A model generated the notes under the pieces. It saw only the letters and a program-made list of their open reading frames with translations. It ran no database searches and was not told the origin of the DNA. Source: a bacterium (GTDB lineage Bacteria > Patescibacteriota > Minisyncoccia > UBA6257 > JAGOQP01). From it: a stretch of 64,000 bases of DNA. The stretch covers positions 846 through 64,845 of the forward strand of contig JAJXZH010000011.1 in NCBI GenBank assembly GCA_021780155.1, given 5' to 3'. The position numbers were made by a program, and so were the translations under genes. Below, in pieces: positions 9,372 through 38,782 of this stretch (position 1 is its first letter; the number at the start of each line of letters is the position of its first letter).

Positions 9372-10604
9372 TTAATCTAAATTAAAAACATACAACTGAC
9401 CATCTAATCTATTTATAAAATAAATTTTGCCGTTCAATTCTTTTATTTTGGAAATGTCTAAATTTGTATTAGGTGCATTAAATAAAGTAGATACATCAAA
9501 ACTTTGCAAATCGATTTGATAAAGACCGTCATTAAAGTAAGCCCCCCTCATCAGATAATCATCGGGCAAAACGAGATCAGAGCCTTTGTTATTCAAAAAA
9601 GACAGGGCGCAATAAGCATATTTGGAATTGTAAGAAAAAGAACATTTCTCCGGAACAGTGCTTAAAACAATATCCGCCAATTTAGTCCCAGATTTATTTG
9701 TTAATGACACGTTATAATTTTTGGAATCGGCTGAAATAAATTCCATAGCATAATCAAATGGATAAGAAAATATTGCCCCAATTCCTTGACCTTGCCCAAA
9801 AAGATTGACTGTTTTTTTGTTTAAATCCAAGTACCATATTTGACCGGAATAATTAAAAGATTGTTTTGGCATTATAAAAATTTTATTCGCGTCTGGCCAT
9901 AGAATATTCGCATCCAAAATGTTTAAAGAAGATAGCAGAGTCACTTGATTTTTTGTGTTCGTCAAATTAATTGAATAAATATTTGCCGTTCCGCCGGAAT
10001 ATTTAAGAATAGCTAATTTTTTACCATCCGGGGAAAAATCAAAAGAGCTAACTCCCGAGCTTAATTCTTTCCAAACGCCAATACTTGAATCAAATAAAGC
10101 CAAGCTTCCGGAATCAAATTGAACAACAATTTCTTTGCCATCAATACTTTGGACTAATTTTAACGGCACTCCATAATTAGAAGCTGAAATAATTTTTTCT
10201 TGAAGAGGCCCCAAAATTTCAATCACCTCTCCTTTATTATTCAAATAAAAAACTCTTGGCAATACCTGGGAAGATGATGAAGTGGAGGTAGAGGTAGAAG
10301 TTGAAGAATAAATCCAATAATCAACTATCGTGTCATTATTGGTTAATAAAGATAATTTTTGCTTTTGTTGGTCATAAATTGACTGATCTTGAGTATTAGA
10401 ATTTGAAGTCGCAGAATTTGAATAAGAAGAATTATTTGATGAATAGTTATTACTGGAACTAGATGATGATATCGGCAAACTTCCCGATTGATTACTTTGA
10501 TTTGGGCTTGCGACAAATGATGATTTTTTGTAACCAAAATAAACCCCTACCCCTATAGCAATGATTATCAGAACAATTATCAAAACTAAAATTGTTTTTT
10601 TCAT
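9372..10604 (-). CDS. membrane-anchored hypothetical with Ser/Asn-rich linker and a beta-rich extracellular domain
   Basis: N-terminal TM. Long low-complexity S/N/T stretch. C-terminal part has alternating hydrophobic repeats (WD/propeller-like). No motif recognised. Confidence 0.35.
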   Translation of the reverse strand: MKKTILVLIIVLIIIAIGVGVYFGYKKSSFVASPNQSNQSGSLPISSSSSSNNYSSNNSSYSNSATSNSNTQDQSIYDQQKQKLSLLTNNDTIVDYWIYSSTSTSTSTSSSSQVLPRVFYLNNKGEVIEILGPLQEKIISASNYGVPLKLVQSIDGKEIVVQFDSGSLALFDSSIGVWKELSSGVSSFDFSPDGKKLAILKYSGGTANIYSINLTNTKNQVTLLSSLNILDANILWPDANKIFIMPKQSFNYSGQIWYLDLNKKTVNLFGQGQGIGAIFSYPFDYAMEFISADSKNYNVSLTNKSGTKLADIVLSTVPEKCSFSYNSKYAYCALSFLNNKGSDLVLPDDYLMRGAYFNDGLYQIDLQSFDVSTLFNAPNTNLDISKIKELNGKIYFINRLDGQLYVFNLD

Positions 10605-10620: not shown

Positions 10621-11622
10621 TTACCATTGAGCATGTATATGAGCCCCGCTTTTCCAATTACCTCCATCAAAAACAGAGCTGCAACTGTCATAAAACGTCC
10701 CACTTATCTCGCATTTTGCAAAAGATGCTCCATTTTGTTTCAAGGTTTTAACAAACTCATCCCAAACATTGGGGTCTTTTGAAGATGAAACAACTATATC
10801 CATTGCTCTTCCTTGATAGTGATACGAATTAGTGGCGTGTTTTCCTCCGGTCAGACTTGTAACCATAAATTGGGGTGGAGTCGGGCTCACGCAGCCGGGC
10901 GCTTGAGGGGCCATCCCCGTACCCAAATCAACGGTCCCTTGAGAATATGTACCACAAACAATACTATCCAAAGTTTCTAACATATTAATACTCAGATTAA
11001 CACTTCCACTGGTTCCCCCTCTAACACAGTCACAGCTTGGACTGCAAACGAAAGGAAGAACCCCATTGCTTACATCATTAATGATTGATTTTGCATCGGT
11101 TCCTGAAGAACAATCGTGACTTTGAGAAAAAATTACTTCGCTTGGACTTTTTGATAAAATACTTGAAGCTATCTGAGATAAAAGACTTCTTTGCTCCGTT
11201 GACCCTCCGTTATTTGTTCCGCCACTGGTTTGCATAGGAGGAACAGGTTGAGATATAAGATTTAAGCTCACTAATTGGGGATTTATGGTATTTAAGATAA
11301 GATATGACCCGGCAAGCAACAAAAGACCCCAAATGGCACTCATTATCCTATCTTTGGCATCTCCCAAGGCCGATTCGTTACCTCCACTGGCAAGATATTC
11401 TATACCTCCATAAATAATCATAATTATTGCTAAAGTTCCGGAAATCCCTATTGCATAATTATAAAGCCCGGACACAAAAGAAGGAATCGATTGGGAATTT
11501 AAAAATGACGGATAATCAACATTTATAGTGCTTGTCGATTGAGCGAATACTGGCAAAAATAAAATAAATCCCAATCCAAAAATAATTGAAAATAAAACAA
11601 AATAATTATATTTTTTTTTCAT
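10621..11622 (-). CDS. VirB2/TrbC-like T4SS pilin domain fused to a C-terminal M15 (VanY-like) zinc peptidase domain
   Basis: Signal peptide. N-terminal region with two TM helices around a GG-N-ES loop (GGIEYLASGGNESALGDAK...AIWGLLLLAG), homologous to the six pilin paralogs at 36.4-38.8 kb. C-terminus has SYHYQGRAMD (the M15 SxHxxGxAxD motif) and a distal AHIH. Confidence 0.5.
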   Translation of the reverse strand: MKKKYNYFVLFSIIFGLGFILFLPVFAQSTSTINVDYPSFLNSQSIPSFVSGLYNYAIGISGTLAIIMIIYGGIEYLASGGNESALGDAKDRIMSAIWGLLLLAGSYLILNTINPQLVSLNLISQPVPPMQTSGGTNNGGSTEQRSLLSQIASSILSKSPSEVIFSQSHDCSSGTDAKSIINDVSNGVLPFVCSPSCDCVRGGTSGSVNLSINMLETLDSIVCGTYSQGTVDLGTGMAPQAPGCVSPTPPQFMVTSLTGGKHATNSYHYQGRAMDIVVSSSKDPNVWDEFVKTLKQNGASFAKCEISGTFYDSCSSVFDGGNWKSGAHIHAQW

Positions 11623-11628
11623 ATTATT

Positions 11629-12393
11629 TTATTGAATAGTAAAACTTATAGAACTCTGGGCCGACTCAATCGGATTATTTGCATTTTGAGCAGTTAGTCC
11701 GATATCTACAATCCCCGAGTTTATATTTTTTCCGAAATTAACGGACAAAGAAAATGGATCGTTTGCTATTCCTCCAAATTTTTTGTTTTCAACAGTCCAT
11801 GTCGGAACGATATCATATAATAAATTGGCATTAAAAAAGAACGGAGCAGAAGACAAGCTAATCATTGAATTGGCATTAATAATATTGCTAAAATTTTTAT
11901 TAAAAATTACTACTTCCGGATTGACTATCGGGATAGTAATATAGTTATCAACAAAAGAAACACTTCCATCTGACGGATTTTCAACCTCCGAAGAAATCCT
12001 AACACTCAAATTGTCCGAAGCGATCCATTTGTTAATAGGAAAAGAAATCGATTTTAAACCCTGACCCTGGTCATAATATTGATTATTGACATACCACTTG
12101 ACCAACCGATTGGAAAGGTCGAGCACTTTACCAAGATTGGTTTTATCTTGACCAATTAATTCGAAAGAAATATTAACTCTTGATCCCTTGCTGGGCAAAA
12201 TTTTCCCCTGATACCATTGAGGAGCAAAACTGCTGGCATTCCAAGAAACCATAAATTGTGGGTCGGCAGCAAAAACACTCGTTGGTAAAAACAACTGTGC
12301 AAGAATAACTAAAAATACAGAAATGACCGAGTATTTTATAAAACGAGTTATCATCTGTTTTATTATATCAAATAAGACAATAAATATAAACAA
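11629..12393 (-). CDS. N-terminally anchored extracytoplasmic protein (VirB8/PrgL-position protein, hypothetical)
   Basis: One N-terminal TM, then about 220 aa of soluble domain. Sits between VirB4 and the hydrolase, as VirB8-like proteins do in Gram-positive T4SS loci. No motif recognised. Confidence 0.3.
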   Translation of the reverse strand: MFIFIVLFDIIKQMITRFIKYSVISVFLVILAQLFLPTSVFAADPQFMVSWNASSFAPQWYQGKILPSKGSRVNISFELIGQDKTNLGKVLDLSNRLVKWYVNNQYYDQGQGLKSISFPINKWIASDNLSVRISSEVENPSDGSVSFVDNYITIPIVNPEVVIFNKNFSNIINANSMISLSSAPFFFNANLLYDIVPTWTVENKKFGGIANDPFSLSVNFGKNINSGIVDIGLTAQNANNPIESAQSSISFTIQ

Positions 12394-12404
12394 CTTTCAA
12401 AAAA

Positions 12405-12953
12405 TCATCTTGCTATTTTCTTTGAATTCATAGCCTTGGATGCTATGCCAAATGTTTTGTTAAAAGATTCGGGACTATTTGTGCTCCAGATAGTTAAAAT
12501 AGCAGCCACAGTAGTTATCGGCAACCAATCTATCCCGGGAATAAGTTCTACCGCTTGAGCAATGACATTTTTTCCAACACTGTTTACGCCTTTTATAAAA
12601 AGCCAGGCAATAATAACGGGCGCAAAAACAAATCTTGTTACCCATATCCCATCAAGAATATCCGAAATAATAGAAAGACCCATATAAAATATAATTTCAA
12701 TCAGATCAAATCTGGGACCGGACGATGCCGACGATACATCTTGACTATCTTCGTCTTTTTCTTCATCTGATATTTCGTCATCATCTTCGGACTCATCTTC
12801 GTCATCACTCTCATCACCTGAAACATCTTCTTCATCTTCCGAACGCTCATTTTCATCATCATTTAGATCTTCTTCGTATTGAGAATCGGATCCTTCCAAA
12901 AAATCGTCGCCGGAAGTATTATCTTCATTTTGATTTTCTTTTTCTTCATCCAT
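12405..12953 (-). CDS. membrane protein with poly-acidic N-terminal tail
   Basis: The first ~85 aa are almost entirely D/E/S (EDEEDVSGDESDDEDESEDDDE). Two TM helices follow. Confidence 0.35.
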   Translation of the reverse strand: MDEEKENQNEDNTSGDDFLEGSDSQYEEDLNDDENERSEDEEDVSGDESDDEDESEDDDEISDEEKDEDSQDVSSASSGPRFDLIEIIFYMGLSIISDILDGIWVTRFVFAPVIIAWLFIKGVNSVGKNVIAQAVELIPGIDWLPITTVAAILTIWSTNSPESFNKTFGIASKAMNSKKIAR

Positions 12954-12968
12954 TTTTATAATAAACCC

Positions 12969-14726
12969 TTAAACTAAACTCTCTTCTTCTCCCAAAAGTT
13001 GCTGAGGTTTGGTAGTAACAATCTTATCTTCAAAATAGGAAGCGGTCACTTGAATGGCAACGTGTTTTAGCCCGGCAAAAAACAATCCCTGCCCGACTCC
13101 CGCTTCAAGCAACAAATTTTTCTCCGCTTCTGTCAGGTTAAACGCTTTGGCAATATTATCTATACTGGTTGGAGATTGTTTCAATAAAAGCTGTAAAGAT
13201 GAGTTGGTGACTATCGGTTTTCCGTAGGGAGAATTTAAAAAATCATCTACCTCTTGTGTGATGGTGGTAATGCCTAAATAATATTTTCTACCTCTTTTTG
13301 CCAAAGAAAACAAAAACGAAGCTCCTTCGGGATATTTCATAATCACCCACGCCTCGTCAATAACCAAAATTCTTCTTTCCATTTGAGATTTAACTACATT
13401 CCAAATAAAGTTCAAAACAACATACATTGCCATCGGCCTTAATTCCTCCTCCAAATCTCTCATAGAAAAAACAACGAGACGATTATTTATATCTATATTT
13501 GTTTTCTGATTTATGAATCCGGAATAACTTCCTTGAGTATATTTATAAAGACGCTCAGCCATTCCTCTTCCCCCTTCCATATTTCTCAAAACAGTTTCAA
13601 GGTCGGACAACGTGGGTGGTTCAAGACTCAAAAAATTAGGATTGCTCGGAGTGATGTCTCTTGAGGCGTATGTTTCTGTTAAAGCTCTGTCCAAAATTCC
13701 TTCCTCCTCAACCGTCATATCTCCAAGCATAATTTTAAGCAATCCGGTAAGCGTTAGAATGTTTGATTTAAAAACATCGGCCGGATCTTCTCCTTTGGGA
13801 ACTATCGGAATGTCAAACGGATTAACATGCTGATCGGAAGTAAGTGAAATTTTAAAATATGTTCCACCAACGGTATCACAAAGATTTTTATATTCATTTT
13901 CCGGATCAATAACCATTACTTTTGTGCCCATCATCATTGACCTTAAGATCTCAAGCTTGGTGGCATAAGATTTTCCCGAACCGGATTTGGCAAAAACAAC
14001 TTGGTGAGCATTTTCCAAAGAAAATCTGTCAAAAATTATGAGCGAATTATTGTGAAGGTTTATTCCATATAAAATTCCATCCTCGGATGTAAGATCCATA
14101 GAAACAAATGGGAAAAAAGAAGAAATCGGACCGGAATTCATCGGAGTTCGCACCGCCAATTTGTCTTCTCCGATTGGAAGAACCGATTCAAAGCCTTCAA
14201 TCTGCTGAAAAATAGCCGGCTTAATGTAAATAATTTTACTCTCAAAAAGATTGGTGATTACCTCCTCAAGCTCGTTTAACTTTTCCAAAGTGTCACCATA
14301 AATTGTAATATAGACAGCCGAATCAAAAAGACGCTCCTGCGCTTGTTGCAACTTATCGCGCAAGGCCTCAATATCGGAAAAGGCGGTTTCCAGCATCGGA
14401 TCACGAACAAAACCCTTTGATTCTTTTTCGGATATTTCAGCTTCAATTTGAGCGGCTTTTTTCCTAAGATTTCTTAAAGCCAAAGCAGTGTCTATTGGGT
14501 GAGCAAAAATTGAAATATCAAAAAGTTTTGCCAAATTTATTATCGGCGAAAACCATCCACTGGAAAGAAATCTCGGATAAGAAAACACAAAAAGAGTTTT
14601 GGCAAATTTATCGCCTATTTTTATATAGTTTTGGTCAACTTCCAAAGCCGCCGGAGCGATTAAATTTTTGACTTCCGATTCTTCTTGTCCGGTATAAGGT
14701 TTTATAACTTTTATTTCTTCACTCAT
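12969..14726 (-). CDS. VirB4/TraE-family T4SS ATPase, C-terminal 585-aa portion
   Basis: Walker A VFAKSGSGKSYAT. Walker B ILVIDEAWV. The YPRFLSSGW motif matches the VirB4 central region. Confidence 0.85.
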   Translation of the reverse strand: MSEEIKVIKPYTGQEESEVKNLIAPAALEVDQNYIKIGDKFAKTLFVFSYPRFLSSGWFSPIINLAKLFDISIFAHPIDTALALRNLRKKAAQIEAEISEKESKGFVRDPMLETAFSDIEALRDKLQQAQERLFDSAVYITIYGDTLEKLNELEEVITNLFESKIIYIKPAIFQQIEGFESVLPIGEDKLAVRTPMNSGPISSFFPFVSMDLTSEDGILYGINLHNNSLIIFDRFSLENAHQVVFAKSGSGKSYATKLEILRSMMMGTKVMVIDPENEYKNLCDTVGGTYFKISLTSDQHVNPFDIPIVPKGEDPADVFKSNILTLTGLLKIMLGDMTVEEEGILDRALTETYASRDITPSNPNFLSLEPPTLSDLETVLRNMEGGRGMAERLYKYTQGSYSGFINQKTNIDINNRLVVFSMRDLEEELRPMAMYVVLNFIWNVVKSQMERRILVIDEAWVIMKYPEGASFLFSLAKRGRKYYLGITTITQEVDDFLNSPYGKPIVTNSSLQLLLKQSPTSIDNIAKAFNLTEAEKNLLLEAGVGQGLFFAGLKHVAIQVTASYFEDKIVTTKPQQLLGEEESLV

Positions 14727-14743
14727 TTTTATTTTATTGAAAA

Positions 14744-15430
14744 TTAATTTGCCGCCTGTTTTTCCAAATCCGGTTCCTTGGTTAATTGTTGCTTGATAGA
14801 AGATGGGTTATATAAATTGTAATAAAGTTCGGTCAATTCTTGGTCATTTAAAACTACAGCCCTCAATCCGATTCTTTCTATGCCGGACAAAACTTGATCT
14901 ATTCTTTGCCTTAACTGAATCAGTTGTTGTTCATAGGATTCTTGTTTTTCTTTTTTGCTGTCTTTTGATTTTCCAAAAAAACCGGTAATATTGCTGGTTA
15001 ATTTTTTGGCGCCGGCATTTTCATACGGAACAACCACAAAAAAAGTTTTAGTCATTATCTCATTTTCTTTGACAAACCCCTTTATATATTCCACATATTC
15101 ATCTATTTGATTTCTCAATAGCTCACTTTCTTCCTGCTGTCTTCTTTGGGCCATTTTTGAAAGATAGTTATCTATATTTATTTTTCTGGAATGAATGACG
15201 ATTTGAGTCGAAAAATCCAGAGAATTAAGAAAATCTTGATAATTGGCGGTAATAATATTTTGTTCTTCTTCGGATTTAAGTTCAAAATTTATTCCCGAAA
15301 CCATAATAACCGACCTCAATGCCCCGTCTTTTAATTTAACGATGCCGTCTTTTACTTCTTCTATGTCCACAAATTGCTGGGTTGAATTGGGAGCGATTTG
15401 AGTAGTTGTTTTTTGTTTATCTTCAGCCAT
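14744..15430 (-). CDS. VirB4 N-terminal domain (CagE/TrbE/VirB N-terminal region) encoded as a separate ORF
   Basis: The pattern VDIEEVKDGIVKLKDGALRSVIMVSGINFELKSEEEQ matches the N-terminus of Gram-positive VirB4 homologs. It ends 17 nt before the start of the ATPase ORF, in a different frame. Confidence 0.6.
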   Translation of the reverse strand: MAEDKQKTTTQIAPNSTQQFVDIEEVKDGIVKLKDGALRSVIMVSGINFELKSEEEQNIITANYQDFLNSLDFSTQIVIHSRKINIDNYLSKMAQRRQQEESELLRNQIDEYVEYIKGFVKENEIMTKTFFVVVPYENAGAKKLTSNITGFFGKSKDSKKEKQESYEQQLIQLRQRIDQVLSGIERIGLRAVVLNDQELTELYYNLYNPSSIKQQLTKEPDLEKQAAN

Positions 15431-15479
15431 ATTTTTAAATTATACCAAAAATTAAAATTAAAAGATAAAAATCAGACTC

Positions 15480-16016
15480 TTACCTGTAATCAATCCTGCG
15501 TGCCACTTCTTTTTCTCCGCTGATTCTTCTGAAAACCTGGTATTGTTCTTTAATGTCCGAAATTGGTTTTTTGGGAATAACTTTCTCTCTTTTGGGAATC
15601 GGGTTTTTAGTCGTCGTCATATCCTGCCACAATTTCGAAATCTGAGAAATTCCCGATGACGCCAAATCCAAAGCGCTTCTTTTGGCTTCCACTGTTTGCG
15701 GCTTGACTTGAGGAATTTCAAAAGTTTCCTTGATAACCGGCCTTTTCCACAAAAACATTTTCGGCTGCCAAAAAAATTTAGCCGCCAAAAAAGACAACAT
15801 ATAAAGCGGACGCCCATTAATTTTAACAAAAGCAAATGCCCCACCAAAAGACATTAAAACTATAAAAATCATCACCCAAATTGCCGTGTTTAAAACAAAG
15901 AAAAGGAAAAACGAAATTAAAGCCGGAGCCGCTATAAAACCAAATTGTTTTAAAGTGAGCGGACCGACTATCTTAGATTCAATATCAATAAATTGTGGGA
16001 CTTCAAATTGAGCCAT
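15480..16016 (-). CDS. PrgI/VirB3-like small T4SS membrane protein
   Basis: N-terminus FEVPQFIDIESKIVGPLTLKQFGFI followed by two TM helices, as in the PrgI family. Immediately upstream of VirB4, as in Gram-positive T4SS loci. Confidence 0.5.
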   Translation of the reverse strand: MAQFEVPQFIDIESKIVGPLTLKQFGFIAAPALISFFLFFVLNTAIWVMIFIVLMSFGGAFAFVKINGRPLYMLSFLAAKFFWQPKMFLWKRPVIKETFEIPQVKPQTVEAKRSALDLASSGISQISKLWQDMTTTKNPIPKREKVIPKKPISDIKEQYQVFRRISGEKEVARRIDYR

Positions 16017-16084
16017 ATGTAAATTATATCAAAAATTGAAGGTCAAAAGCCAATTACATTTTCCAAAAAAACCGGCCAAATAAC

Positions 16085-17299
16085 TCATTTTCTCATCGTC
16101 AAATTACTCAAATCAACCATACCACCACCAATATCATTATTTTTGTTTTCTACGGATGATTTGGCTGACGGCTGATTAAATGACGTAATTGGTGTTGAAG
16201 TTTTTGAGTTATCGGGAACATTGCTTGCGACATCCGTCTTAAAATTATTATCCAAAGAAGTTTTAAAGTTGCTTATATGAACCGTCTTAACCGGTTCTTC
16301 TTCGTATTTTTTGACCACCACCGGAATTTTTTGAATCGGTTGATCGGATGATAGAGGCTTTATTTGAGAGGGCATTTCTATCTTTGCTGATGAAACAAAA
16401 TTTTGTGTTTTTGCTGTCCCAAATGATTTCATATCCGAGCCAAAAAAACCTCCAAAAGAAGACGGAGCAAAATTTTTAATCGTCTGAGATTGAGCGATGC
16501 TTTGAGATTCTTCTTTTTTATGAAGAATAACCGGTCCCTCAGGAATTGTCGGCTTTGAAGCGGTTGGTTGGGATACGTTTGATTTTGAACCGACAGATAA
16601 TTGACCAAGGTTGACCTCTTGATTTATTTGAGGCTTTGGAGAAATGGCTCCGGTTTCGGCTTGAAAAGTTTTTTGACTTTGATTTGTTTGACTAAACGAA
16701 GTATCCGCAGTCGCAAGTCTGACAACATTCATATTGGCAAAAGAAGCACCTCTGGGAAGTTGAGCCGACTGATTAGCTTGAAGATTGTCCAAAGATATTG
16801 GCGCTGATTCTTTTGGTTTTTGAGAAGTAATATCGCCTTCAATTTTCAGCTTAACGGGCTCGGTTGAAAGAGATGATTTTAAATCTACAATTTCCGGATT
16901 TTTTTCTTTTAAAACTACTTGAGAAGAAACCTGGGTCGGCTCAATGATTTCTGATTCTTTTATAACTCCAATTTTTGATTTTATATAATTTTCTTCAATC
17001 TCTTTTTTAAAAGATTCAAATATCTTTTTATCCACCTGATGATATATCTCCAATGCCAATCTTGGATCTATCTGGAGGGCGTCTCTTATCTCTTTATACA
17101 AATCTTCTGAATTTATAATCCCAAGCAATACATAAAGACAAAGTTCAGATAATTTTTTTGATTTGATATCGGACAAATGATTGTCTCTTGCTATTGAATC
17201 TATAGCTTCATTGCTAAGAGGAGAAAAAACCACATCCCTTAATGTATCAGGTAGTGCGTTCCATCTTTCTCCAATTATTTTTTTTGAAATTGATATCAT
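16085..17299 (-). CDS. hypothetical cytoplasmic protein with ~100-aa folded N-terminal domain and long S/Q/K-rich disordered tail
   Basis: No TM, no motif, and low-complexity composition. It sits inside the T4SS-like cluster. Confidence 0.3.
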   Translation of the reverse strand: MISISKKIIGERWNALPDTLRDVVFSPLSNEAIDSIARDNHLSDIKSKKLSELCLYVLLGIINSEDLYKEIRDALQIDPRLALEIYHQVDKKIFESFKKEIEENYIKSKIGVIKESEIIEPTQVSSQVVLKEKNPEIVDLKSSLSTEPVKLKIEGDITSQKPKESAPISLDNLQANQSAQLPRGASFANMNVVRLATADTSFSQTNQSQKTFQAETGAISPKPQINQEVNLGQLSVGSKSNVSQPTASKPTIPEGPVILHKKEESQSIAQSQTIKNFAPSSFGGFFGSDMKSFGTAKTQNFVSSAKIEMPSQIKPLSSDQPIQKIPVVVKKYEEEPVKTVHISNFKTSLDNNFKTDVASNVPDNSKTSTPITSFNQPSAKSSVENKNNDIGGGMVDLSNLTMRK

Positions 17300-17321
17300 A
17301 TAAAAAATACAATATAAAATA

Positions 17322-19541
17322 CTATTTTTTAACTTCTGATTTAGCAGATGACAAAGTTTCAGTATTAGTTGTCATTCCTCCCATTATTGACCCCATACCT
17401 CTTCCGAGATTATCCGCCAACTGCTTCATCTTTGGATTTTTGGAAGATTTTAAAATTTCGACAGCCTTATCGTATTGTCCACCACTCAAAGCAGCTTCGA
17501 ATTCAGCATCAAGATTTTTAGTTGTCTTTTCCATTGTCGTCTTTTTTTCTTTAACAGTCTGAGCAAATCCTGCGGGACGATTTATTTCCCTGACAACTTC
17601 TTGCTCTTCGTCTATCTGACCTAAATTACCTCTAGCGTTCTGAAGTAATTGACTGAACATTTTAGCCATATTTTCATCATTAAGCTTTGACGCAGTAGCA
17701 CCTATTCCTCTGCCCTGTCTACCTCCCATGTTAGCCAAATAATTTTCACGAAACCTATCAGAAGCATCCTTATTTAATCCAAGAATCTCCGGCTTGCCAC
17801 TGAAAGCTTCATTCCCTACATTGCCAGCCATCGCTCTCCAATCTTCGGGACTAAATTTTCCATAAAACTCTTCGGCTTTCTTTTGATATTCCTCATAATT
17901 TCCTTCTTTCAAAGATTTCATCATTTCAGTGCTCATACCAAGACTTTTTTCTAAATTGTTAGCAATATTAGTTCTCCCTCCTTGTCTCAAATAATCAGCC
18001 TGTCTTGTAATTTCATCTATTCCGCCAAAGGCAGCTATGGTATCGCCATCCAATCTTCCTTGTTGCTGCATCGCCATTAAAAGACCGAGTTGTTCTTCTC
18101 TGGGCAATCCGGCATATGCTTCTCTTTGCCTATTTTTGTCCCATTTTTTGTATTCTTCAACAAAAGTTTCCGGCGGTTTTCCAAAAACCGGTTCGGCTTT
18201 CCTTTTTTCTGCAGAAGCTCCAGCATTTATTAACCCTTTACCAGCACGCCCAACCGTCTCTCTAGCAACCCAACCAACGCCAGGCACTTTTATTTTTCCA
18301 GCAAATGAAGACATTCTCGCTCCGATTTTTTCTACTCCAATTCCTCTCCCAATTGCAGCAGCAGCGGCACCAGATCCTCTTTTAGCATATTGAGTGGTTT
18401 TCGATCTTGCCCATCCACTCATTTTCCCGGATACTTTACTTGATTGTTTTAAAATAAAACTGCTTCCCGCCATTCCCAAACTCTGAGAAATTTTAAGACC
18501 TCCTATAAGTATCGCTCCGGACATTAAAGTTAACATAATAGCATCAAATCCATGAACCCCACCCGATTGACTGGCGGAATTAGTAAGTCCGCTAAATCCC
18601 AAATTGGATGATTGGCTCATCATTATCATTGACAGTTTTACAAACAAAAGCATAAGCGGAGCGAAAAACACCCATTTTAGAAAATGCGTCCACCAGTCAC
18701 GCCAAAATCTGTATGCAGATGGAAATATCCACAAAAGCCACGCTCCTGGAGATAAAATTAGTAAAAATGATATATAAAAATATCTAAGCAAAAACATAAG
18801 CGCTAAAACCAATAAAACAAAAGAGACGAAAACTGCGGCCAATACTTGAATAAAAATATTTATAATGTCTCCTATGTTTTGAATATCTCCTTGCGTACTT
18901 TTTGAACTCACGTCCATTACAGTAGAGGTTGTCGTCAAGATTGTTCCTATCTCACTATTTTGGACAATCATCATACTGGTTTTGTCGCTGACTTGAACAG
19001 GATCATTGTGATCTATATTTTGTTTTAGTGTTATATCTTGCAAAAAAGAATTGGAAAAGACATCCGAAACTTTTATAATCGCTCCGCCGATCATTAAGCT
19101 AAAATTTACAATCAAAGCGGCAACCACCAATTTCCACAAAATCGATTGAGCTTGATAACTTTTAATTCTCAAGATGGTGGCAATCGCTATGACAATTATT
19201 CCCAAAACAAAACCTAAATTAGCCAAATCTCGAAAAGTAGTCCACCCCACATAAACAAAACTGTGTGAATCAAAAATTTGAGTGGTAATTTTTTGAGTGA
19301 GTGTCAGAGAGGCGGACAATATGGTAGCGGCAAGTTTCATCATTCCCGCCACTAAAATGTCCTTTATCGTAAGCAATACTTTCAAAAAAATATCCGAAAT
19401 GGCTCCGGTAGCAAAAGATCCTATATTCAACAAACTAGGTAATGCGTATGCTCTCTCATGAAATAAAGAAAATGCCAAAAACAACACCAAACAAAAAATA
19501 ATGACTTTGCTTTGATTTGTTAATATCTTATTTCTTTTCAT
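17322..19541 (-). CDS. VirB6/TrbL-like polytopic membrane protein with long hydrophilic C-terminal extension
   Basis: Signal/TM followed by at least 6 TM helices in the first ~330 aa. A ~400-aa Gly/charged-rich tail follows. Position upstream of the PrgI-like and VirB4 genes matches PrgH/VirB6. Confidence 0.45.
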   Translation of the reverse strand: MKRNKILTNQSKVIIFCLVLFLAFSLFHERAYALPSLLNIGSFATGAISDIFLKVLLTIKDILVAGMMKLAATILSASLTLTQKITTQIFDSHSFVYVGWTTFRDLANLGFVLGIIVIAIATILRIKSYQAQSILWKLVVAALIVNFSLMIGGAIIKVSDVFSNSFLQDITLKQNIDHNDPVQVSDKTSMMIVQNSEIGTILTTTSTVMDVSSKSTQGDIQNIGDIINIFIQVLAAVFVSFVLLVLALMFLLRYFYISFLLILSPGAWLLWIFPSAYRFWRDWWTHFLKWVFFAPLMLLFVKLSMIMMSQSSNLGFSGLTNSASQSGGVHGFDAIMLTLMSGAILIGGLKISQSLGMAGSSFILKQSSKVSGKMSGWARSKTTQYAKRGSGAAAAAIGRGIGVEKIGARMSSFAGKIKVPGVGWVARETVGRAGKGLINAGASAEKRKAEPVFGKPPETFVEEYKKWDKNRQREAYAGLPREEQLGLLMAMQQQGRLDGDTIAAFGGIDEITRQADYLRQGGRTNIANNLEKSLGMSTEMMKSLKEGNYEEYQKKAEEFYGKFSPEDWRAMAGNVGNEAFSGKPEILGLNKDASDRFRENYLANMGGRQGRGIGATASKLNDENMAKMFSQLLQNARGNLGQIDEEQEVVREINRPAGFAQTVKEKKTTMEKTTKNLDAEFEAALSGGQYDKAVEILKSSKNPKMKQLADNLGRGMGSIMGGMTTNTETLSSAKSEVKK

Positions 19542-19551
19542 ATCATTTTAT

Positions 19552-21093
19552 TTATTGAGCGGGACAAGAGAAAGACGATAAGGCGCTATTGAAATTATCC
19601 AACATCGTCTCGGTTGTTCCTGTCTGCCCGGAACCGGCCATTTGAGCATCACCCACTATTGTCTTATTGGCGTCGTTATTAATAAAATCACTATATTTTG
19701 ATTGTGCTTGACTAACGGCGCTGTCGTCGGAATAGTCAAGATTGTTAAGTTCGTCTAAATTAGCCGATGCTTCGTTGGCCACAGCGGAAAATCCCTGTCC
19801 AAATGTATTTAAATAATCTAAAGCGGCAGAAATTGTCATCTGGACCATAGTTCCCCCTCCTTGATCAAGAGAAATTTCGGAAGAAGAACAAGTGCTATTA
19901 AATCCACTAGCCAAAGCAATGTCGGCGTTAACTTTGGGAGTTAAAACATTATTTATATAACTGGAAACTTCGGTATATGTTTTAACGGAATCGGCTAAAG
20001 CTTGTTTATTGGCGCTTATTTTATCTCCTTGAATATTTGACGGGATATCGGAATTATTTATTCCCTGATTGGCTCCGCTTACCGACCAATCACTTCCATT
20101 ACTACTGATTCGGCTCAAACCATCTTTTAATATTCTTGACGCCAAAGCATTAAGAATTGCAGCCAAAGCGCTCTGAACATTTGAAGAAAATTCAAAATTA
20201 GCCCCAACAGCTTTCATTATTGCTCCTGCCGCTACGCTCCCGGGAGTTTTTATTTCCCAAGAAGTGCACTCACTCTGAACGGCATAATTAACACAAGCAT
20301 CGTGTTGTGGATCTCCTTCACATGTCGTTTCGGCATCGGCTAAAGCTTGTTGATCGGTACATACCTTATTATCAGTAAATCCCTGAGAAGCAATCGCTTG
20401 AGTTTGAGCGATCGTGCTTTGGGTTGATATTTTTTGATTCACCGCATCTTCAAGATTACTCCAGGCCAATGCAGAATCGACTTGAGGAGAAATTAAAGCA
20501 TCAAACCCCGACCAACCCATATCGGTAAAAATAGACACCGGTCCGTTTGGATTTTCAATATTTCTTTTTATATCATCAAAAGTACATTGAGTTGGAACCC
20601 CATAGTATTGGTCCCCACTTCCTCCGTATCCGTATTGTTGAGCCAAGATACCCAACCTTGCTTGAAATTGAACTCCCAGTGGAGCGCAAAGATTAATTTT
20701 GCCACTGCTTAAATCACCTACGTATTTTATCGCCGTGCTTACACCAATATCAGTCGCAGATTGACTTAAATAATTTTTCCAATCGGAAATATAACCGGAG
20801 CCGTTACTGCCATTTCCTGAATTGCCATTTATTTGAGCCACTATGTCTCTTTGCATTTTTGATATAACAATAGCTACAATCACATCCCTGTAATGTTTCT
20901 GTATTTCAGTCCAAGCAGTTGCCAAATATTCTTGTACAGCCGTCTGCAAAATACTAGGGATGCTAACCAAAACTGATGTCGGATAAAACGCTTGAGCTAC
21001 ATTTGTTTTTTGTCCAAAAATTCCAAAGAAATTAACTGCTACTACGGAAAAAATGACAAACAAAATAATAAATTTTTTAAATGCGGTTTTCAT
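19552..21093 (-). CDS. secreted Cys-containing hypothetical protein (possible surface/adhesin component)
   Basis: Signal peptide. 513 aa with multiple Cys pairs. No catalytic motif. Confidence 0.35.
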   Translation of the reverse strand: MKTAFKKFIILFVIFSVVAVNFFGIFGQKTNVAQAFYPTSVLVSIPSILQTAVQEYLATAWTEIQKHYRDVIVAIVISKMQRDIVAQINGNSGNGSNGSGYISDWKNYLSQSATDIGVSTAIKYVGDLSSGKINLCAPLGVQFQARLGILAQQYGYGGSGDQYYGVPTQCTFDDIKRNIENPNGPVSIFTDMGWSGFDALISPQVDSALAWSNLEDAVNQKISTQSTIAQTQAIASQGFTDNKVCTDQQALADAETTCEGDPQHDACVNYAVQSECTSWEIKTPGSVAAGAIMKAVGANFEFSSNVQSALAAILNALASRILKDGLSRISSNGSDWSVSGANQGINNSDIPSNIQGDKISANKQALADSVKTYTEVSSYINNVLTPKVNADIALASGFNSTCSSSEISLDQGGGTMVQMTISAALDYLNTFGQGFSAVANEASANLDELNNLDYSDDSAVSQAQSKYSDFINNDANKTIVGDAQMAGSGQTGTTETMLDNFNSALSSFSCPAQ

Positions 21094-21926
21094 TTGTTTA
21101 AATTATATTTTTTTATTATTGAATCATATAAAATAGCCAACTCTTGAGATTCACTTGTCATCTCCGTCGCTCCATCAGTGGAGGCGATATATGCTTTAAT
21201 CGGGTCGTTATTCCCATCTCTTATGGCTTCAAAAATAATGGCTGAATTTTTCAAAAATATCAGAGATTTTTCATGAAACATAACCAGGCTCGATGGAACT
21301 TCCAACTCTATAAGTTTATCATATCCGGAATTAAAATCCGAGATGAGCTGGTCTAATTGCTGGCTATTGCCATTATCCACTGCGTCGGTAAGAATTTTGC
21401 TTATTTGTTGAGGATGGGAAATAAAAGTATTTGCCGCTTGAGTAAAAATAATTGAATATTGCTGGCCATAATTTTGTAATGACGACGAAGAATTGTCGCT
21501 GGTTGTTAAAATGCTCGATGTAGCAATTGAGGAAATTAACCCCAATGGATTATTCTTAAATTGATCCATCAACTTATTGATATCCACAGACGAATTGGCT
21601 GAATTTATCTGGTCAACCAATGACTTAGAATCAGTCGTATTATTTAAATTGATTTTTGATAAAAATTGTGATGCCACATTATTGGATATTTGATCGGTTA
21701 AATTGTAAAATCCAACATTTGCGCTACTTGTTGAATTTTGTTGAGAGGAAACCGGACTCACATAAGGAGTAGATGAATTATTTAAAGAAGAATCGGACAC
21801 CGTAATAGGAGAACCGGCCCCGGAATTAACCGTCGATTTTCCCAAAAATCCGGAGGCTAACCAATAACCGACAAAAATAATCGTTATTAAAATAAAAACG
21901 GCAAAAATTTGATTTTCCTTGTTCAT
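21090..21926 (-). CDS. membrane-anchored Ser/Asn-rich hypothetical protein
   Basis: One N-terminal TM, then a low-complexity S/N/T-rich region. Its stop overlaps the start of the downstream ORF. Confidence 0.35.
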   Translation of the reverse strand: MNKENQIFAVFILITIIFVGYWLASGFLGKSTVNSGAGSPITVSDSSLNNSSTPYVSPVSSQQNSTSSANVGFYNLTDQISNNVASQFLSKINLNNTTDSKSLVDQINSANSSVDINKLMDQFKNNPLGLISSIATSSILTTSDNSSSSLQNYGQQYSIIFTQAANTFISHPQQISKILTDAVDNGNSQQLDQLISDFNSGYDKLIELEVPSSLVMFHEKSLIFLKNSAIIFEAIRDGNNDPIKAYIASTDGATEMTSESQELAILYDSIIKKYNLNK

Positions 21927-24594: not shown

Positions 24595-24610
24595 AAGATT
24601 TAATCAATTT

Positions 24611-26269: not shown

Positions 26270-26546
26270 TTTCTCTTGGTAATCGTCGATTGATTATTAT
26301 TATATAATAAGCAACGCAGAGAAAAAAGAGATCAATAGTTGTGAGGGGGGGGTTGATAACTCATCAAAATCCAATGGGAGCCACACATTCCACCGCTCAG
26401 GAAGTGGAAAGGTGATTAATCCTTCCACTAATCCCATCATTTGAAATATTCGAACAAAAAGTTCTAATATTTTATTTAATCAATTTTCAAAAAATAACCG
26501 CCACTACCAACCAATTTAAAATTATTTTCCTTTAAAATATCCATGC

Positions 26547-34261: not shown

Positions 34262-34414
34262 ATATTTTTTGCCTCAAACCCACACCTCTCCGCTTCAAGC
34301 GGATCCGCCCATCAAGGCGGAAAAATCTCAGAGCTGGCGCCCAAATAAATATTTGAGCAACAATTCTGAGTTTTGACGAATGAGTTTTTTGGACTGATTA
34401 ATTATATTTTATAT

Positions 34415-34930
34415 TTATCGACGACTTAATTTAGTTTTAAATAATACTTTTGAATTCTCATCCAAATCAATAAATGTGTCAACTGATTCTTTTAATTTAG
34501 AAGAGGAACTTCTGCCAAAAGAGGCGCACTCAACCTGCTTACCCTCGCCCCATTTTAAATATTCAACCAATGGAATAAAATCTCCATCTCCGGTAATCAA
34601 AATCACCACATCCAAAGATTTTGCCATTCTGATTGCATCAACCGCCATCCCCACATCCCAGTCGGCTTTTTTAGCGCCTCCGGAAAAAACTTGAAGGTCT
34701 TTCATTCTCAATTCTATTCCACTTTTTTCCAAAGCCTCAAAAAAAGCGCCCTCTCCGGCGGAGATGTCGCTTTTAACCACGTATCCTATGGCGCGGATTA
34801 GCTGTCTTGGACCAACAACCAATTTTACAAGCTCGGAAAAGTTAACCCTTGAACCATAAAGATGCTTTGCCGAGTGATACAAATTTTGAACATCCACGAA
34901 AATTCCGACTCGTTGGTCTTTGTAGCGCAT
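34415..34930 (-). CDS. NYN-domain (LabA/YacP-like PIN-fold) putative ribonuclease
   Basis: VGIFVDVQNL...DVGMAVDAI...VVILITGDGDFIPLV carries the NYN acidic residues. Confidence 0.65.
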   Translation of the reverse strand: MRYKDQRVGIFVDVQNLYHSAKHLYGSRVNFSELVKLVVGPRQLIRAIGYVVKSDISAGEGAFFEALEKSGIELRMKDLQVFSGGAKKADWDVGMAVDAIRMAKSLDVVILITGDGDFIPLVEYLKWGEGKQVECASFGRSSSSKLKESVDTFIDLDENSKVLFKTKLSRR

Positions 34931-34966
34931 AAAATTTATTTTAAAATATTATCAAAAAACGACAAA

Positions 34967-35233: not shown

Positions 35234-35362
35234 TAAAAAAAGTATATAAAAAATAAACAATAAAGTCAACCCACTATCAATCTTTAAATTAAAAAACAAA
35301 TCTGATTTGGCTCTCCATAATGTGTCGCAAAATAAAAAATATGGTAAAATATAAGAACAAAA

Positions 35363-36408: not shown

Positions 36409-36412
36409 AAAC

Positions 36413-36439
36413 AAAAATCCGCCTTCAAAGCGGATTTTT
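36413..36439. terminator. bidirectional rho-independent terminator
   Basis: AAAAATCCGCCTTCAAAGCGGATTTTT is a perfect hairpin flanked by an A-run and a T-run. It lies between tRNA-Leu (+) and the first pilin paralog (-). Confidence 0.6.
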
Positions 36440-36462: not shown

Positions 36463-36831
36463 CTATTGAGTAAGTCCGGAAGACAATGAACTCTGAACCA
36501 AGCTTACCACTCCATAAGAGAGCAAGGCAACGACTATGCCAACGATGGCATAAATCAGTTCCTGTTTGGCTTTTTTGGTTGTTTCCGTGTCCCCCTTGCT
36601 GGTAATGAAATGAAAAGCTGACAAAAGAATAAAAAGAACCGCGACAATAAAGATTATGTAATAGAACCATTTAACTACGGTAACTAACATTCCAACCCAA
36701 CCACTTATAGTAGTAGTATTCCCATAAGTAGGACCGAGATTAATAGGGGTTGTGGGCTGAGCGAAAACCGATACTCCTACCGCAAACAACAGAATCACCA
36801 ATCCAATTGACGCAAATATTTTTTTAACCAT
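36463..36831 (-). CDS. VirB2/TrbC-like T4SS pilin-family protein (paralog A)
   Basis: Signal peptide, variable region, then TM1-(SKGDTETTKKAKQEL)-TM2 hairpin (YAIVGIVVALLSYG), as in the other paralogs. Confidence 0.5.
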   Translation of the reverse strand: MVKKIFASIGLVILLFAVGVSVFAQPTTPINLGPTYGNTTTISGWVGMLVTVVKWFYYIIFIVAVLFILLSAFHFITSKGDTETTKKAKQELIYAIVGIVVALLSYGVVSLVQSSLSSGLTQ

Positions 36832-36903
36832 GATTTTTTTTATCGTTACGACCTTTACTTTTTAATATTTTTAATAATAGCATAAACATTTAATAATCTC
36901 AAA

Positions 36904-37296
36904 TCAATTCGCACCTCTGCTTTGCAAAAACTGAGTAATTGTCCAAGAAACACCGGAAGCAATCAGAGCTACGACTATAGCAATAATCGCATATTTTAAT
37001 TGAGACTTAGCCGTTTCTGCCTTCTTTTCATTTGCCCCTCCTTGGAGAAAATTGTAGGCCGCCAAAAGAATAAATAAAACGGCAACTACAAAAAATATAA
37101 CATAAATCCACTTAACTATACTAATCAATATATACCAGAATTGAGTAACGCCAGTTATCGGAGAAGAAATTTCGCTGTTTCCAAAAGGGTTTATATATCC
37201 TTCATTTACTGCGAAAACTTCAAAAATGCCGGTTGTCAAAAATATGGTTATAAATAAAAATGGCAATATCTTTAATAATTTTTTTTGTTTAAACAT
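36904..37296 (-). CDS. VirB2/TrbC-like T4SS pilin-family protein (paralog B)
   Basis: VKWIYVIFFVVAVLFILLAAYNFLQGGANEKKAETAKSQLKYAIIAIVVALIASG is the conserved core. Confidence 0.55.
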   Translation of the reverse strand: MFKQKKLLKILPFLFITIFLTTGIFEVFAVNEGYINPFGNSEISSPITGVTQFWYILISIVKWIYVIFFVVAVLFILLAAYNFLQGGANEKKAETAKSQLKYAIIAIVVALIASGVSWTITQFLQSRGAN

Positions 37297-37311
37297 AAAT
37301 TTAAATTTATT

Positions 37312-37698
37312 TTAATAAACTCCTCCGCTACCAAGAAATTGAGCGATAATAAATGAAAGACCCGAAGCAATAAGTGCGACAACTATAGAAATAGCGGCAT
37401 ATTTTAGCTGTCCTTTGGCAATCTCTATCTTTTTTTCGTTTGTTCCTCCTTGAATAAAATTATAAGCCGCCATCAGAATAAAAATAACTGCCACCACAAA
37501 AAATGCTCTATAAATCCAAATAACAATATTTCTTATAATATCAAACACGCCGTTCACGCTATTGACCGGAGATGCCGTATTTCCTGTGTTAAAAGGAGCA
37601 ATATTAACTCCGGAGGTATCCGGCGATCCGGCGGCAAGAACGATTATCGGCAACATCATCATAATTGCAGCCAATGATAAAAAAAACTTTTTTTTCAT
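37312..37698 (-). CDS. VirB2/TrbC-like T4SS pilin-family protein (paralog C)
   Basis: Core AVIFILMAAYNFIQGGTNEKKIEIAKGQLKYAAISIVVALIASG is nearly identical to paralog B. Confidence 0.55.
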   Translation of the reverse strand: MKKKFFLSLAAIMMMLPIIVLAAGSPDTSGVNIAPFNTGNTASPVNSVNGVFDIIRNIVIWIYRAFFVVAVIFILMAAYNFIQGGTNEKKIEIAKGQLKYAAISIVVALIASGLSFIIAQFLGSGGVY

Positions 37699-37712
37699 AT
37701 TTTTGATATTAA

Positions 37713-38030
37713 TTATTTATTACCCAAAAATGTATTTATTATTGTAGCAACTCCCGAAGCGGTTAGAGCGATAACCAAAGCAATAACGGCATATTTCAAC
37801 TGAGCTTTAGCGGTTTCTATTTTTTTGGGATTATCTCCTCCCTGAAGATAATTAAATGCCGCCAAAAGAATAAATCCGACAACAACAATATAAAAAGCTT
37901 CATACATATAAGTGACGGCTTTTTGCATCAAGGCAATAATATCATCAGCGGTATTTATTTGAGCAAATGCCACCATCGGAAATCCGGAAATAATCGCCGC
38001 CGCTATAATTGATTTTGTTTTATTTTTCAT
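37713..38030 (-). CDS. VirB2/TrbC-like T4SS pilin-family protein (paralog D)
   Basis: Core FILLAAFNYLQGGDNPKKIETAKAQLKYAVIALVIALTASG. Confidence 0.55.
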   Translation of the reverse strand: MKNKTKSIIAAAIISGFPMVAFAQINTADDIIALMQKAVTYMYEAFYIVVVGFILLAAFNYLQGGDNPKKIETAKAQLKYAVIALVIALTASGVATIINTFLGNK

Positions 38031-38050
38031 ATTTAAATATTTTTATTAAA

Positions 38051-38386
38051 TTAAGCGCCAATGAAATTTTTAACTACCGCCGCTATTCCTTTTGCCGCAA
38101 GAACTACGGCCATTCCGACAATCGTATAAGTAATCGTTTTCTTCCCTTGAGCAAATTTGCTTTCATTGCCGGCGGCGCCAAGCATTTGAAACGCTCCGAC
38201 AAGCAACATTATAACAAAAACGGGAGAAGCAAGTTCAACAATAAATGTCGCAATTTTATCAACCAAATCGGGCACGGTAGTGACAGACAACGGATTGGGC
38301 AGAGAAACTCCACCGTTATCGGCGGCACTGGCAACTATCGGTATCCCCGAAACAAAGATAAATAGCGAATAGAAGATTTTTTTCAT
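38051..38386 (-). CDS. VirB2/TrbC-like T4SS pilin-family protein (paralog E, divergent)
   Basis: Same architecture, with a divergent loop AAGNESKFAQGKKTITYTIVGMAVVLAAKG. Confidence 0.45.
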   Translation of the reverse strand: MKKIFYSLFIFVSGIPIVASAADNGGVSLPNPLSVTTVPDLVDKIATFIVELASPVFVIMLLVGAFQMLGAAGNESKFAQGKKTITYTIVGMAVVLAAKGIAAVVKNFIGA

Positions 38387-38410
38387 ATTTTATTTATTAT
38401 AGACATTATA

Positions 38411-38782
38411 CTATTGTGTCGGCAAATTTAAAAACTTCAAAACGGTATTAACCAAAATCCAGGCGCCAAAAGTCAAAACTATGCCGATTGCCGCCGCAGT
38501 TATTTTTTGCCTTCCTTTTTTAAATTTTCCTTCATCACCCGCCGAAATCGCCATTTCAATTCCTCCCCAAACGATAACAATGATTGCCACCGGTGTAACG
38601 ATGTCGGTTAAAACGAAAGTAACTACACCCTGAACTGTTTTTACAAAATCGGAATAGGTGCATGGATTTTGGCCGTTCCCTCCACAATTAACCAAAGCGG
38701 CAAAAGATTGCATGGCATTCATAAAAAACACCAGAGAAAAAAATAAAATTCCGTAACCGTATTTTCCGAATTTTTTTATCAT
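38411..38782 (-). CDS. VirB2/TrbC-like T4SS pilin-family protein (paralog F, divergent, Cys-containing)
   Basis: Same architecture. The loop GGIEMAISAGDEGKFKKGRQK resembles the pilin domain of the M15 fusion protein at 10621-11622. Confidence 0.45.
   Translation of the reverse strand: MIKKFGKYGYGILFFSLVFFMNAMQSFAALVNCGGNGQNPCTYSDFVKTVQGVVTFVLTDIVTPVAIIVIVWGGIEMAISAGDEGKFKKGRQKITAAAIGIVLTFGAWILVNTVLKFLNLPTQ

Follow-up and report, generated by a model that had tools for sequence, protein, structure and literature searches.

Type IV secretion systems (T4SSs) of Patescibacteria have been described both genetically and by comparative genomics. Transposon sequencing (Tn-seq) of Southlakia epibionticum showed that the T4SS locus and a six-pilin array are essential for growth on the host; the authors pointed out that coupling and relaxase proteins were lacking and suggested that the system exports proteins or has some other role (Wang et al, 2023; PMC10633639). 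In a survey of 3,035 Patescibacteria genomes, 2,425 VirB4 proteins formed a monophyletic clade nested in MPF-FATA, with TrsD as the commonest VirB4 partner, PrgI/VirB3, VirB6, and VirB2-like pilins (441 arrays) encoded nearby, and ksgA among the most frequent neighbours (Quinonero-Coronel et al, 2025; PMC12102498). VirD4-like genes were common and rarely near virB4, and the authors concluded that the machinery has been co-opted for non-conjugative functions (PMC12102498). A 2025 FEMS review lists the Patescibacteria T4SS as a new member of the T4SS superfamily (PMC12857230). Here, we analyse a 64,000-nt stretch of a Minisyncoccia genome (contig JAJXZH010000011.1, positions 846 to 64,845), hereafter the window, whose own coordinates are used throughout. 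It carries a block of minus-strand genes that is very probably such a system, non-conjugative in nature. Judged from its sequence, the block probably belongs to the MPF-FATA-derived "Patescibacteria clade", and its layout is typical of the class Paceibacteria.

The original prediction had proposed ten co-directional, tightly packed genes at 10621-21926, and ten open reading frames (ORFs) lie exactly there, all on the minus strand and separated by intergenic gaps of -4 to 68 nt; at the upstream end, for example, the A278 stop overlaps the B513 start by 4 nt. An eleventh conserved gene (9372-10604, minus strand), outside those coordinates, closes the block, and an array of pilin genes lies at a distance. 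The G+C content of the block (0.35-0.385) is no different from that of the remaining window. A promoter and terminator scan performed no better than on shuffled sequence and did not define the operon limits. The components are as follows.

21090..21926, minus strand: A278, first gene of the block; N-terminal membrane anchor at residues 7-25 (a single hydrophobic segment), Ser/Asn-rich linker, and C-terminal helical domain
19552..21093, minus strand: B513, extracytoplasmic protein with a signal or anchor sequence, 8 Cys, and a helical hairpin at the C-terminus
17322..19541, minus strand: C739, extended VirB6/TrbL-like polytopic membrane protein
16085..17299, minus strand: D404, soluble protein; conserved N-terminal helical domain of ~100 residues, then a long low-complexity tail rich in Ser/Gln/Pro/Lys
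15480..16016, minus strand: PrgI/VirB3-like small membrane protein (Pfam PrgI)
14744..15430, minus strand: TrsD-like, detached N-terminal VirB4 segment (NCBIfam and precomputed family matches)
12969..14726, minus strand: VirB4 ATPase, CD1110/MPF-FATA-like (Pfam, NCBIfam, PDB 4ag5)
12405..12953, minus strand: H182, small membrane protein; acidic disordered N-terminus (~80 residues) and 2-3 transmembrane (TM) segments
11629..12354, minus strand: I241, signal-anchored, beta-rich extracytoplasmic protein
10621..11622, minus strand: J333, VirB2-like pilin with a probable fused Cys-rich extracytoplasmic Hedgehog/DD-peptidase (LAS) zinc-peptidase domain
9372..10604, minus strand: K410, TolB-like beta-propeller anchored at its N-terminus; a Cys pair near the C-terminus is conserved
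36463..38782, minus strand: VirB2-like pilin array of six tandem free-standing genes (Pfam T4SS_pilin), at 38411-38782, 38051-38386, 37713-38030, 37312-37698, 36904-37296, and 36463-36831

The membrane translocon consists of the VirB6-like protein, the PrgI/VirB3-like protein, and a two-piece VirB4 ATPase made up of the TrsD-like N-terminal segment and the main body. The identity of the VirB4 main body, already proposed in the original prediction, is firm: it matches P-loop_TraG (E = 3e-30) and AAA_10 (E = 1e-15) in Pfam, the NCBIfam model conju_CD1110 for VirB4-like conjugal transfer ATPases of the CD1110 family (E = 1.8e-112, 377 bits against a cutoff of 325), and the solved VirB4 C-terminal domain in PDB 4ag5 (E = 2e-46). 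Its Walker A (G249, G251, K252, S253) and Walker B (D457, E458) residues, within the motifs GxxGxGKS and DE, are invariant among 13 aligned homologues sharing 66-83% identity. The best-matching curated VirB4 models are the MPF-FATA types CD1110 and Mycoplasma integrative and conjugative element (ICE); matches to CedB and CedD are weak, far below the cutoffs of those models, and reflect the common ATPase fold.

The main body covers positions 182-733 of the CD1110 model; the first ~180 model positions are supplied by the preceding gene. The product of that gene (14744-15430) matches the NCBIfam models VirB4_plasma (92-238), VirB4_CagE (11-179), CD1110 (2-133), and TrsD (E = 4e-9), and carries precomputed matches to PF26593 (TraC-like) and PF27097 (VirB4_TrbE_N). 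Because the two products match complementary positions of VirB4 models, they represent two complementary parts of VirB4. A single ORF of 786-790 residues encodes both in the related loci L012, L019, and L048. The original prediction had placed an anchored protein in the VirB8 position here. Hydropathy analysis of 14744-15430 revealed no hydrophobic or TM segment, and together with the TrsD and N-terminal VirB4 matches this led us to reject the VirB8 identity.

The other two translocon components proposed in the original prediction also stand. The PrgI-like protein scores above the Pfam PrgI cutoff (E = 9.9e-8, 32.9 bits against 27). C739 shows ~7 hydrophobic segments within residues 1-350, followed by a hydrophilic C-terminal extension of ~390 residues (hydropathy). 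Its identical public protein carries a weak precomputed match to PF19590 (TrbL_3), and five of 34 positional orthologues match Pfam TrbL/VirB6, with a best E-value of 1.1e-6. Thus, virB4 encodes intact Walker motifs and is adjoined by genes for PrgI and, on weaker evidence, a VirB6-like protein. Three features of the Patescibacteria-clade T4SS are likewise found: a TrsD-like gene adjacent to virB4, VirB2-like pilins including an array, and a chromosomal context in which the window scan detected no relaxase or type IV coupling protein (T4CP) associated with the cluster.

The cluster-encoded pilin J333 comprises a signal peptide, a two-helix hairpin (residues ~44-113), and a peptidase-like domain (residues ~240-333). 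Its pilin domain exceeds the Pfam T4SS_pilin cutoff (E = 4e-7, 30.4 bits against 26.6) and also matches TrbC (E = 9e-4). The C-terminal domain has no Pfam match at normal thresholds; at relaxed thresholds, HH_signal, Peptidase_M15_4, and Peptidase_M15_2 (LAS superfamily) all fall, below threshold, on a single motif. A six-sequence profile of this domain matches the N-terminal domain of Sonic hedgehog in the PDB (E = 2.2e-5), with both zinc motifs aligned (S-x-H-Y-x-G-R-A-x-D and H-x-H). The residues H268-x6-D275 and H328-x-H330 are invariant, and the pattern H-x6-D...H-x-H is the established signature of LAS zinc peptidases. An AlphaFold2 model built from a three-sequence alignment reached a mean predicted local distance difference test score (pLDDT) of 45 and its Foldseek matches were meaningless; the fold claim therefore rests on sequence profiles.

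Given its signal peptide followed by two TM helices, the peptidase-like domain of J333 would be extracytoplasmic. In S. epibionticum, the essential SEML1_0007, encoded immediately downstream of virB4, carries a Hedgehog/DD-peptidase domain in ECOD (PMC10633639). On the basis of the profile match, the zinc motifs, the SEML1_0007 annotation, and the extracytoplasmic topology, we accept J333 as a probable fusion of a pilin with a peptidoglycan peptidase, as the original prediction of a hydrolase joined to a pilin domain had it. Its C-terminal domain would supply the cell-wall hydrolase (VirB1/PrgK analogue) of a monoderm T4SS. A word-indexed search with this domain returned three proteins only; an exhaustive search of representatives later showed that the architecture is not rare, with 26,563 relatives at E ≤ 1e-3, of which 45 reach E ≤ 1e-30. 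The alignment spans both the pilin and the peptidase domains in at least 20 representatives, and 137 of the best 150 matches are at least 200 residues long. Elsewhere in the window, a YkuD L,D-transpeptidase domain and a Peptidase_M23 domain occur together in one protein (47473-48798), and a DsbA-like thioredoxin is encoded close by (49374-50111); the two proteins bear on the remodelling of the wall and on how disulfides form in the Cys-rich exoproteins of the T4SS.

Of 50 positional orthologues of J333, 48 match T4SS_pilin; what follows the hairpin differs greatly between them, and their total length ranges from 106 to 646 residues. Close relatives carry one or two copies of the Hedgehog-like domain per protein. 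Several lineages carry a different peptidoglycan enzyme after the hairpin: VanY at residues 317-417 of the L053 orthologue (E = 4e-11), NlpC/P60 at residues 431-551 of the L041 orthologue (E = 5e-7), YkuD in two orthologues, Peptidase_M15_4 in one, and, as a weak match, CHAP in that of L034. An hhalign comparison of the J333-type domain with the VanY-type fusion of L053 aligned the zinc motif and was not significant. In the published survey, an association of VirB1 homologues with virB4 was noted mostly for Paceibacteria (PMC12102498), and a word search of that paper for fusions returned VirB3-VirB4 only and no pilin-hydrolase fusion. The incremental element of our analysis may thus be a modest refinement, namely that the cluster pilin often bears one of several peptidoglycan-enzyme domains among the Paceibacteria loci compared.

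The free-standing pilins lie ~14.5 kb from the core block and bring the number of VirB2-like pilin domains in the window to seven, J333 included. All six exceed the gathering score of T4SS_pilin (PF18895) with 33.7-45.2 bits against 26.6, and the same array is present in public assemblies. The other five and the J333 pilin domain share 16-29% identity with the first array pilin. Within 36914-37933, a 220-nt segment is common to three of the six genes, at 62-70% nucleotide identity and a spacing of ~400 nt, which points to relatively recent tandem duplication and divergence of these three. A XerC/D-type tyrosine recombinase gene (35363-36277, plus strand) and a tRNA-Leu gene (36321-36408) directly adjoin the array, and a near-perfect 16-bp palindrome between the tRNA and the last pilin gene (36410-36442) looks like a bidirectional terminator. 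Shufflon-like switching of pilins by the adjoining recombinase was considered and rejected, as no inverted repeats occur in or around the array. The array also adjoins rpsO (S15), an NYN-domain gene, and the PNPase gene (32075-35299). The S. epibionticum pilin gene SEML1_0024 adjoins S15 as well (PMC10633639), and this neighbourhood of pilin and rpsO may be conserved across classes. PNPase has been linked to feeding on host RNA in a 2026 preprint.

The remaining products are D404, H182, and a conserved set of extracytoplasmic or anchored accessory proteins, namely the TolB-like propeller, the Ig-like protein, and two proteins of unknown fold. The family profile of K410 matches TolB structures (E = 7e-12), with a weak match to TIGR02800. 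The mechanical ORF of I241 reaches a TTG at 12393, and public gene calls begin at the ATG at 12354; its family profile retrieves weak Ig-like matches only from the PDB (Hoc, E = 0.0018), and the protein probably consists of tandem Ig-like domains. H182 has no Pfam or NCBIfam family match, and its alignment contains a conserved E-x-IP...LP motif. D404 shows no TM segment by hydropathy and no Pfam, NCBIfam, or PDB match. Family profile searches with A278 gave no Pfam or PDB match, and PDB profile searches with the A278, B513, D404, and TrsD-like families retrieved nothing.

The Cys, GGW, and TPG motifs of B513 are conserved in its alignment, and a word-indexed homologue search with this protein returned 10 proteins only. 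In the structure prediction suggested for the hypotheticals, an AlphaFold2 model of B513 from a nine-sequence alignment had an overall pLDDT of 53, and its only confident part was the C-terminal helical hairpin (residues 355-510, pLDDT 80-94). Foldseek against the PDB gave only non-significant prefoldin-like and coiled-coil matches for B513, and no significant match to a T4SS component.

Next, we compared 80 loci from species-representative genomes, whose ORFs were searched iteratively with each window protein; counts are given as loci with a homologue over loci with enough flank to hold the gene. The TrsD-like gene adjoins virB4 in 73/73 eligible loci, and PrgI is found in 66/67, I241 in 66/70, the cluster pilin in 57/59, D404 in 51/59, the VirB6-like C739 in 49/53, K410 in 48/52, B513 in 38/49, and A278, at the same position, also in 38/49. 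H182 was found in 42/78 loci and is therefore regarded as fast-evolving. Order and orientation of the homologues are preserved in most loci with full flanks, and the syntenic loci include those named Wolfe-, Jorgensen-, Harrison-, Kaiser-, Giovannoni-, Nomura-, Azam-, and Zambryskibacteria. The window VirB4 is 100% identical to proteins of GCA_021837745.1 and GCA_027423195.1 and shares 57-79% identity (best aligned segment) with the 80 loci; these loci and the 120 best VirB4 matches all belong to Patescibacteria (including Wolfebacteria, Paceibacterota, and Parcubacteria) or metagenome bins. The window derives from a Wolfebacteria-like bacterium of the Paceibacteria.

In the window, ksgA, a uvrD/pcrA-like helicase gene, and a UbiA-family prenyltransferase gene flank the block upstream, and genes for a histidine kinase, fpg, ruvA, a Mur ligase, an M16 peptidase, and metG follow downstream. 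Across the loci compared, ksgA lies co-directionally upstream in 39 and uvrD in 26. From the gene counts, the preserved order, and the ksgA/uvrD context, it follows that the hypotheticals co-occur with virB4, as the original prediction required, and that the unit is inherited vertically at a fixed chromosomal site. This in turn excludes a recently acquired or decaying ICE. The idea that the block is what is left of an integrated conjugative element in decay, with no current function, could draw on the absence of relaxase and T4CP from the window and on the division of VirB4 into two ORFs. However, that division is itself the conserved state (70/73 loci), dozens of genera have the 11 genes complete and in synteny, the Walker motifs are invariant at the VirB4 identities given above, and a homologous system is essential in S. 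epibionticum (PMC10633639). Conservation already contradicts a remnant, which we regard as extremely unlikely.

Some features of the flanks deserve mention in their own right. A 31-nt sequence occurs at 24598-24628 and 26474-26504, with 94% identity between the copies; the former lies just upstream of the uvrD-like start and overlaps the 3' end of the UbiA-family gene, and the latter lies in the gap upstream of the UbiA-family gene. A weaker copy is found upstream of the Ig-like gene (12384-12405), and the repeat could be a shared promoter or regulatory motif. Two genes for sigma-70/ECF (extracytoplasmic function)-type sigma factors (45882-46457, with an ECF-family match, and 51788-52345; regions 44209-46457 and 51788-53878) are each followed by two co-directional genes without family matches, which are probably anti-sigma modules. 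The segment 56278-63855 encodes iPGM, enolase, pyruvate phosphate dikinase, and a membrane H+-pyrophosphatase, a lower-glycolysis and energy cluster typical of fermentative metabolism in the candidate phyla radiation.

Functions expected of a conjugative element were sought by a Pfam scan of all window ORFs of at least 110 aa, apart from those nested within or crossing a longer annotated ORF. None of these ORFs matched a VirD4/T4CP, VirB11, or relaxase family, as the original prediction had indicated. Contigs of sister assemblies reach a few kb past the window; one side holds only small unknown ORFs, the other a diversity-generating retroelement, and no T4CP or relaxase was seen there. The retroelement (L093:1127-2461 and L095:1193-2527, beyond the right window end and upstream of the H+-pyrophosphatase gene) comprises an RVT_1 reverse transcriptase (331 aa), a bAvd accessory protein (114 aa), and an adjoining candidate target gene of 353-375 aa. 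No att-like direct repeats flank the block, and the XerC/D-like recombinase next to the pilin array, the only one in the window, lies 13 kb from the block behind housekeeping genes. An ICE or conjugative plasmid was rejected on these grounds: no relaxase or T4CP in the window, no adjacent integrase, no att-like repeats, and a conserved chromosomal site.

The block might still be a functional conjugation machine for DNA export, with a coupling protein and relaxase located elsewhere in the genome or too divergent for recognition. The conjugative CD1110 and Mycoplasma-ICE models are the closest to its VirB4, inspection covered the window and a few kb beyond only, and VirD4-type homologues occur in 2,918 Patescibacteria genomes, mostly far from virB4 (PMC12102498). 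The same survey, however, found relaxases in just 103 of 3,035 genomes, and S. epibionticum requires its T4SS but can dispense with its T4CP homologue (PMC12102498). Together with a conserved chromosomal site with housekeeping flanks across the whole class, and with no integrase or att-like repeats nearby, these data make a conjugative role very unlikely.

The closest described systems include the Patescibacteria-clade T4SSs. With these, including S. epibionticum SEML1_0004-0019, the window block shares a VirB4 of MPF-FATA affinity, preceded by TrsD-like and PrgI genes with VirB6 upstream in the same core order; VirB2-like pilins including a six-gene array; a Hedgehog/DD-peptidase protein downstream of virB4 and Ig-like exported proteins; and a chromosomal cluster with ksgA nearby and no relaxase or T4CP. 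There are also differences from the S. epibionticum locus. The window peptidase domain is joined to a pilin, where S. epibionticum has it in a protein of 1,113 residues, and ~14.5 kb separate the pilin array from the core block, which adjoin each other in S. epibionticum. Among the window products, none could be recognised as NTF2/VirB8-like; a TolB-like propeller closes the block, and the cluster is not beside dnaA in the window.

The order VirB6-like, VirB3-like, (TrsD), VirB4, cell-wall hydrolase, which the original prediction had recognised as Gram-positive-type, is indeed shared with Gram-positive MPF-FATA T4SSs (pCF10 PrgH-I-J-K-L, pGO1 TrsC-D-E, and CTn2 CD1110), as are the best-matching VirB4 model, CD1110, and a monoderm architecture without VirB7, VirB9, and VirB10. 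Unlike these systems, the window neighbourhood has no relaxase, T4CP, oriT, or PrgB-type adhesin; it encodes VirB2-like pilins, which Gram-positive systems lack (PMC12102498, PMC12857230), and it is chromosome-fixed and vertically inherited. Among T4SSs that lack a T4CP or act in import, Helicobacter pylori ComB, archaeal Ced, and Bordetella Ptl are likewise driven by VirB4 without a dedicated relaxase and provide a precedent for uptake or toxin export. However, there is no specific homology to them beyond VirB4, and ComB and Ptl are of the diderm type and include VirB7-10. Competence in S. epibionticum depends on ComEC and is a separate function that the cell can do without (PMC11665869, PMC12857230).

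Several points weigh against the identification of the block as a non-conjugative Patescibacteria-type T4SS. The VirB6 homology of C739 itself is weak, deriving from its orthologues and a weak precomputed match, and no VirB8-like component was found, as no product matched VirB8, PrgL, or TcpC in Pfam, NCBIfam, or PDB profiles. The peptidase assignment of J333 comes from a profile match at E = 2e-5 and its motifs, with an AlphaFold2 model too poor for a fold. A T4CP may be encoded elsewhere in the genome. Moreover, a PNAS perspective calls the role of the system "completely unknown", with effector delivery and the uptake of nutrients or nucleotides as the candidates (PMC11665869).

The original prediction of a T4SS-like, probably non-conjugative apparatus fits our results and the literature (PMC10633639, PMC12102498, PMC12857230), with the restriction that absence from 64 kb is not genome-wide absence. 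Since the literature already describes the system, this reading coincides with the published view, and the further proposal of an undescribed interaction system falls away: the system has been surveyed in 3,035 genomes and is essential in S. epibionticum. Calling it minimal was misleading as well, because it comprises at least 11 clustered genes and a six-pilin array. Thus, the block represents an already described system rather than a new kind, and the window provides a clean syntenic example from Paceibacteria.

For the Patescibacteria-type T4SS that we favour, the following mechanism can be envisaged. The VirB6-like protein, the PrgI-like protein, and the two-piece VirB4 would form a membrane platform, where VirB4 would drive the extraction of pilins and their polymerisation into a pilus or tube at the host contact site, as in other VirB2-bearing T4SSs. 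The free-standing pilins would supply variable pilus subunits, and the cluster pilin would bring a wall-cutting enzyme to the assembly site or the pilus surface; its peptidase would cut peptide stems of peptidoglycan locally, in the cell's own wall, that of the host, or both. K410, I241, B513, and A278 could act as wall-spanning or adhesive accessories, with the propeller and the Ig-like protein forming a scaffold or anchoring the structure across the wall, and D404 could be a cytoplasmic partner. The machine would serve contact-dependent traffic of macromolecules with the host, by effector export or uptake of host material, and not conjugative DNA transfer. A 2026 preprint on the cultivated parasite OT8, of the same phylum, describes host-RNA uptake and, where parasite and host meet, tubular structures that could be pili of a T4SS.

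Alternatively, the VirB4/VirB6/VirB3 core might solely assemble tethering pili of the VirB2 type, as an organelle for adhesion or pilus display that translocates no substrate. The seven pilin domains in the window, the lack of a coupling protein nearby, and the variable surface-exposed domains fused to the cluster pilin in related genomes would all suit such an organelle. Patescibacteria, however, already adhere and move by type IV pili (PMC11665869, PMC12857230), and both the extended VirB6, which is conserved, and the soluble D404 point to a channel that has partners in the cytoplasm; pilus display as the sole function is therefore improbable.

A more far-reaching version of the macromolecule-traffic mechanism would treat the cluster pilin of Paceibacteria as a modular combination of a pilin and a wall-cutting enzyme, with one VirB2-like hairpin joined to LAS/Hedgehog-type, VanY, NlpC/P60, CHAP, or YkuD domains depending on the lineage. 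The pilus, the propeller K410, and the conserved products whose fold is not known would then form a conduit that pierces the host wall and imports host macromolecules such as RNA. We consider this version speculative and rather unlikely; if true, the T4SS would work in import, and the enzymes at its tip or surface would be matched to the host cell wall.

Few machines have been shown to be essential for epibiotic life in this very large, mostly uncultured radiation, and the Patescibacteria T4SS is among them. The window provides a corrected list of its parts, with a split VirB4, an 11-gene block ending in a TolB-like propeller, a distant array of six pilins, and a pilin linked to a probable Hedgehog/DD-peptidase domain. 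The occurrence of differing peptidoglycan enzymes on the cluster pilin suggests that the pilus acts on a cell wall, possibly that of the host, and offers a testable hint to its function.

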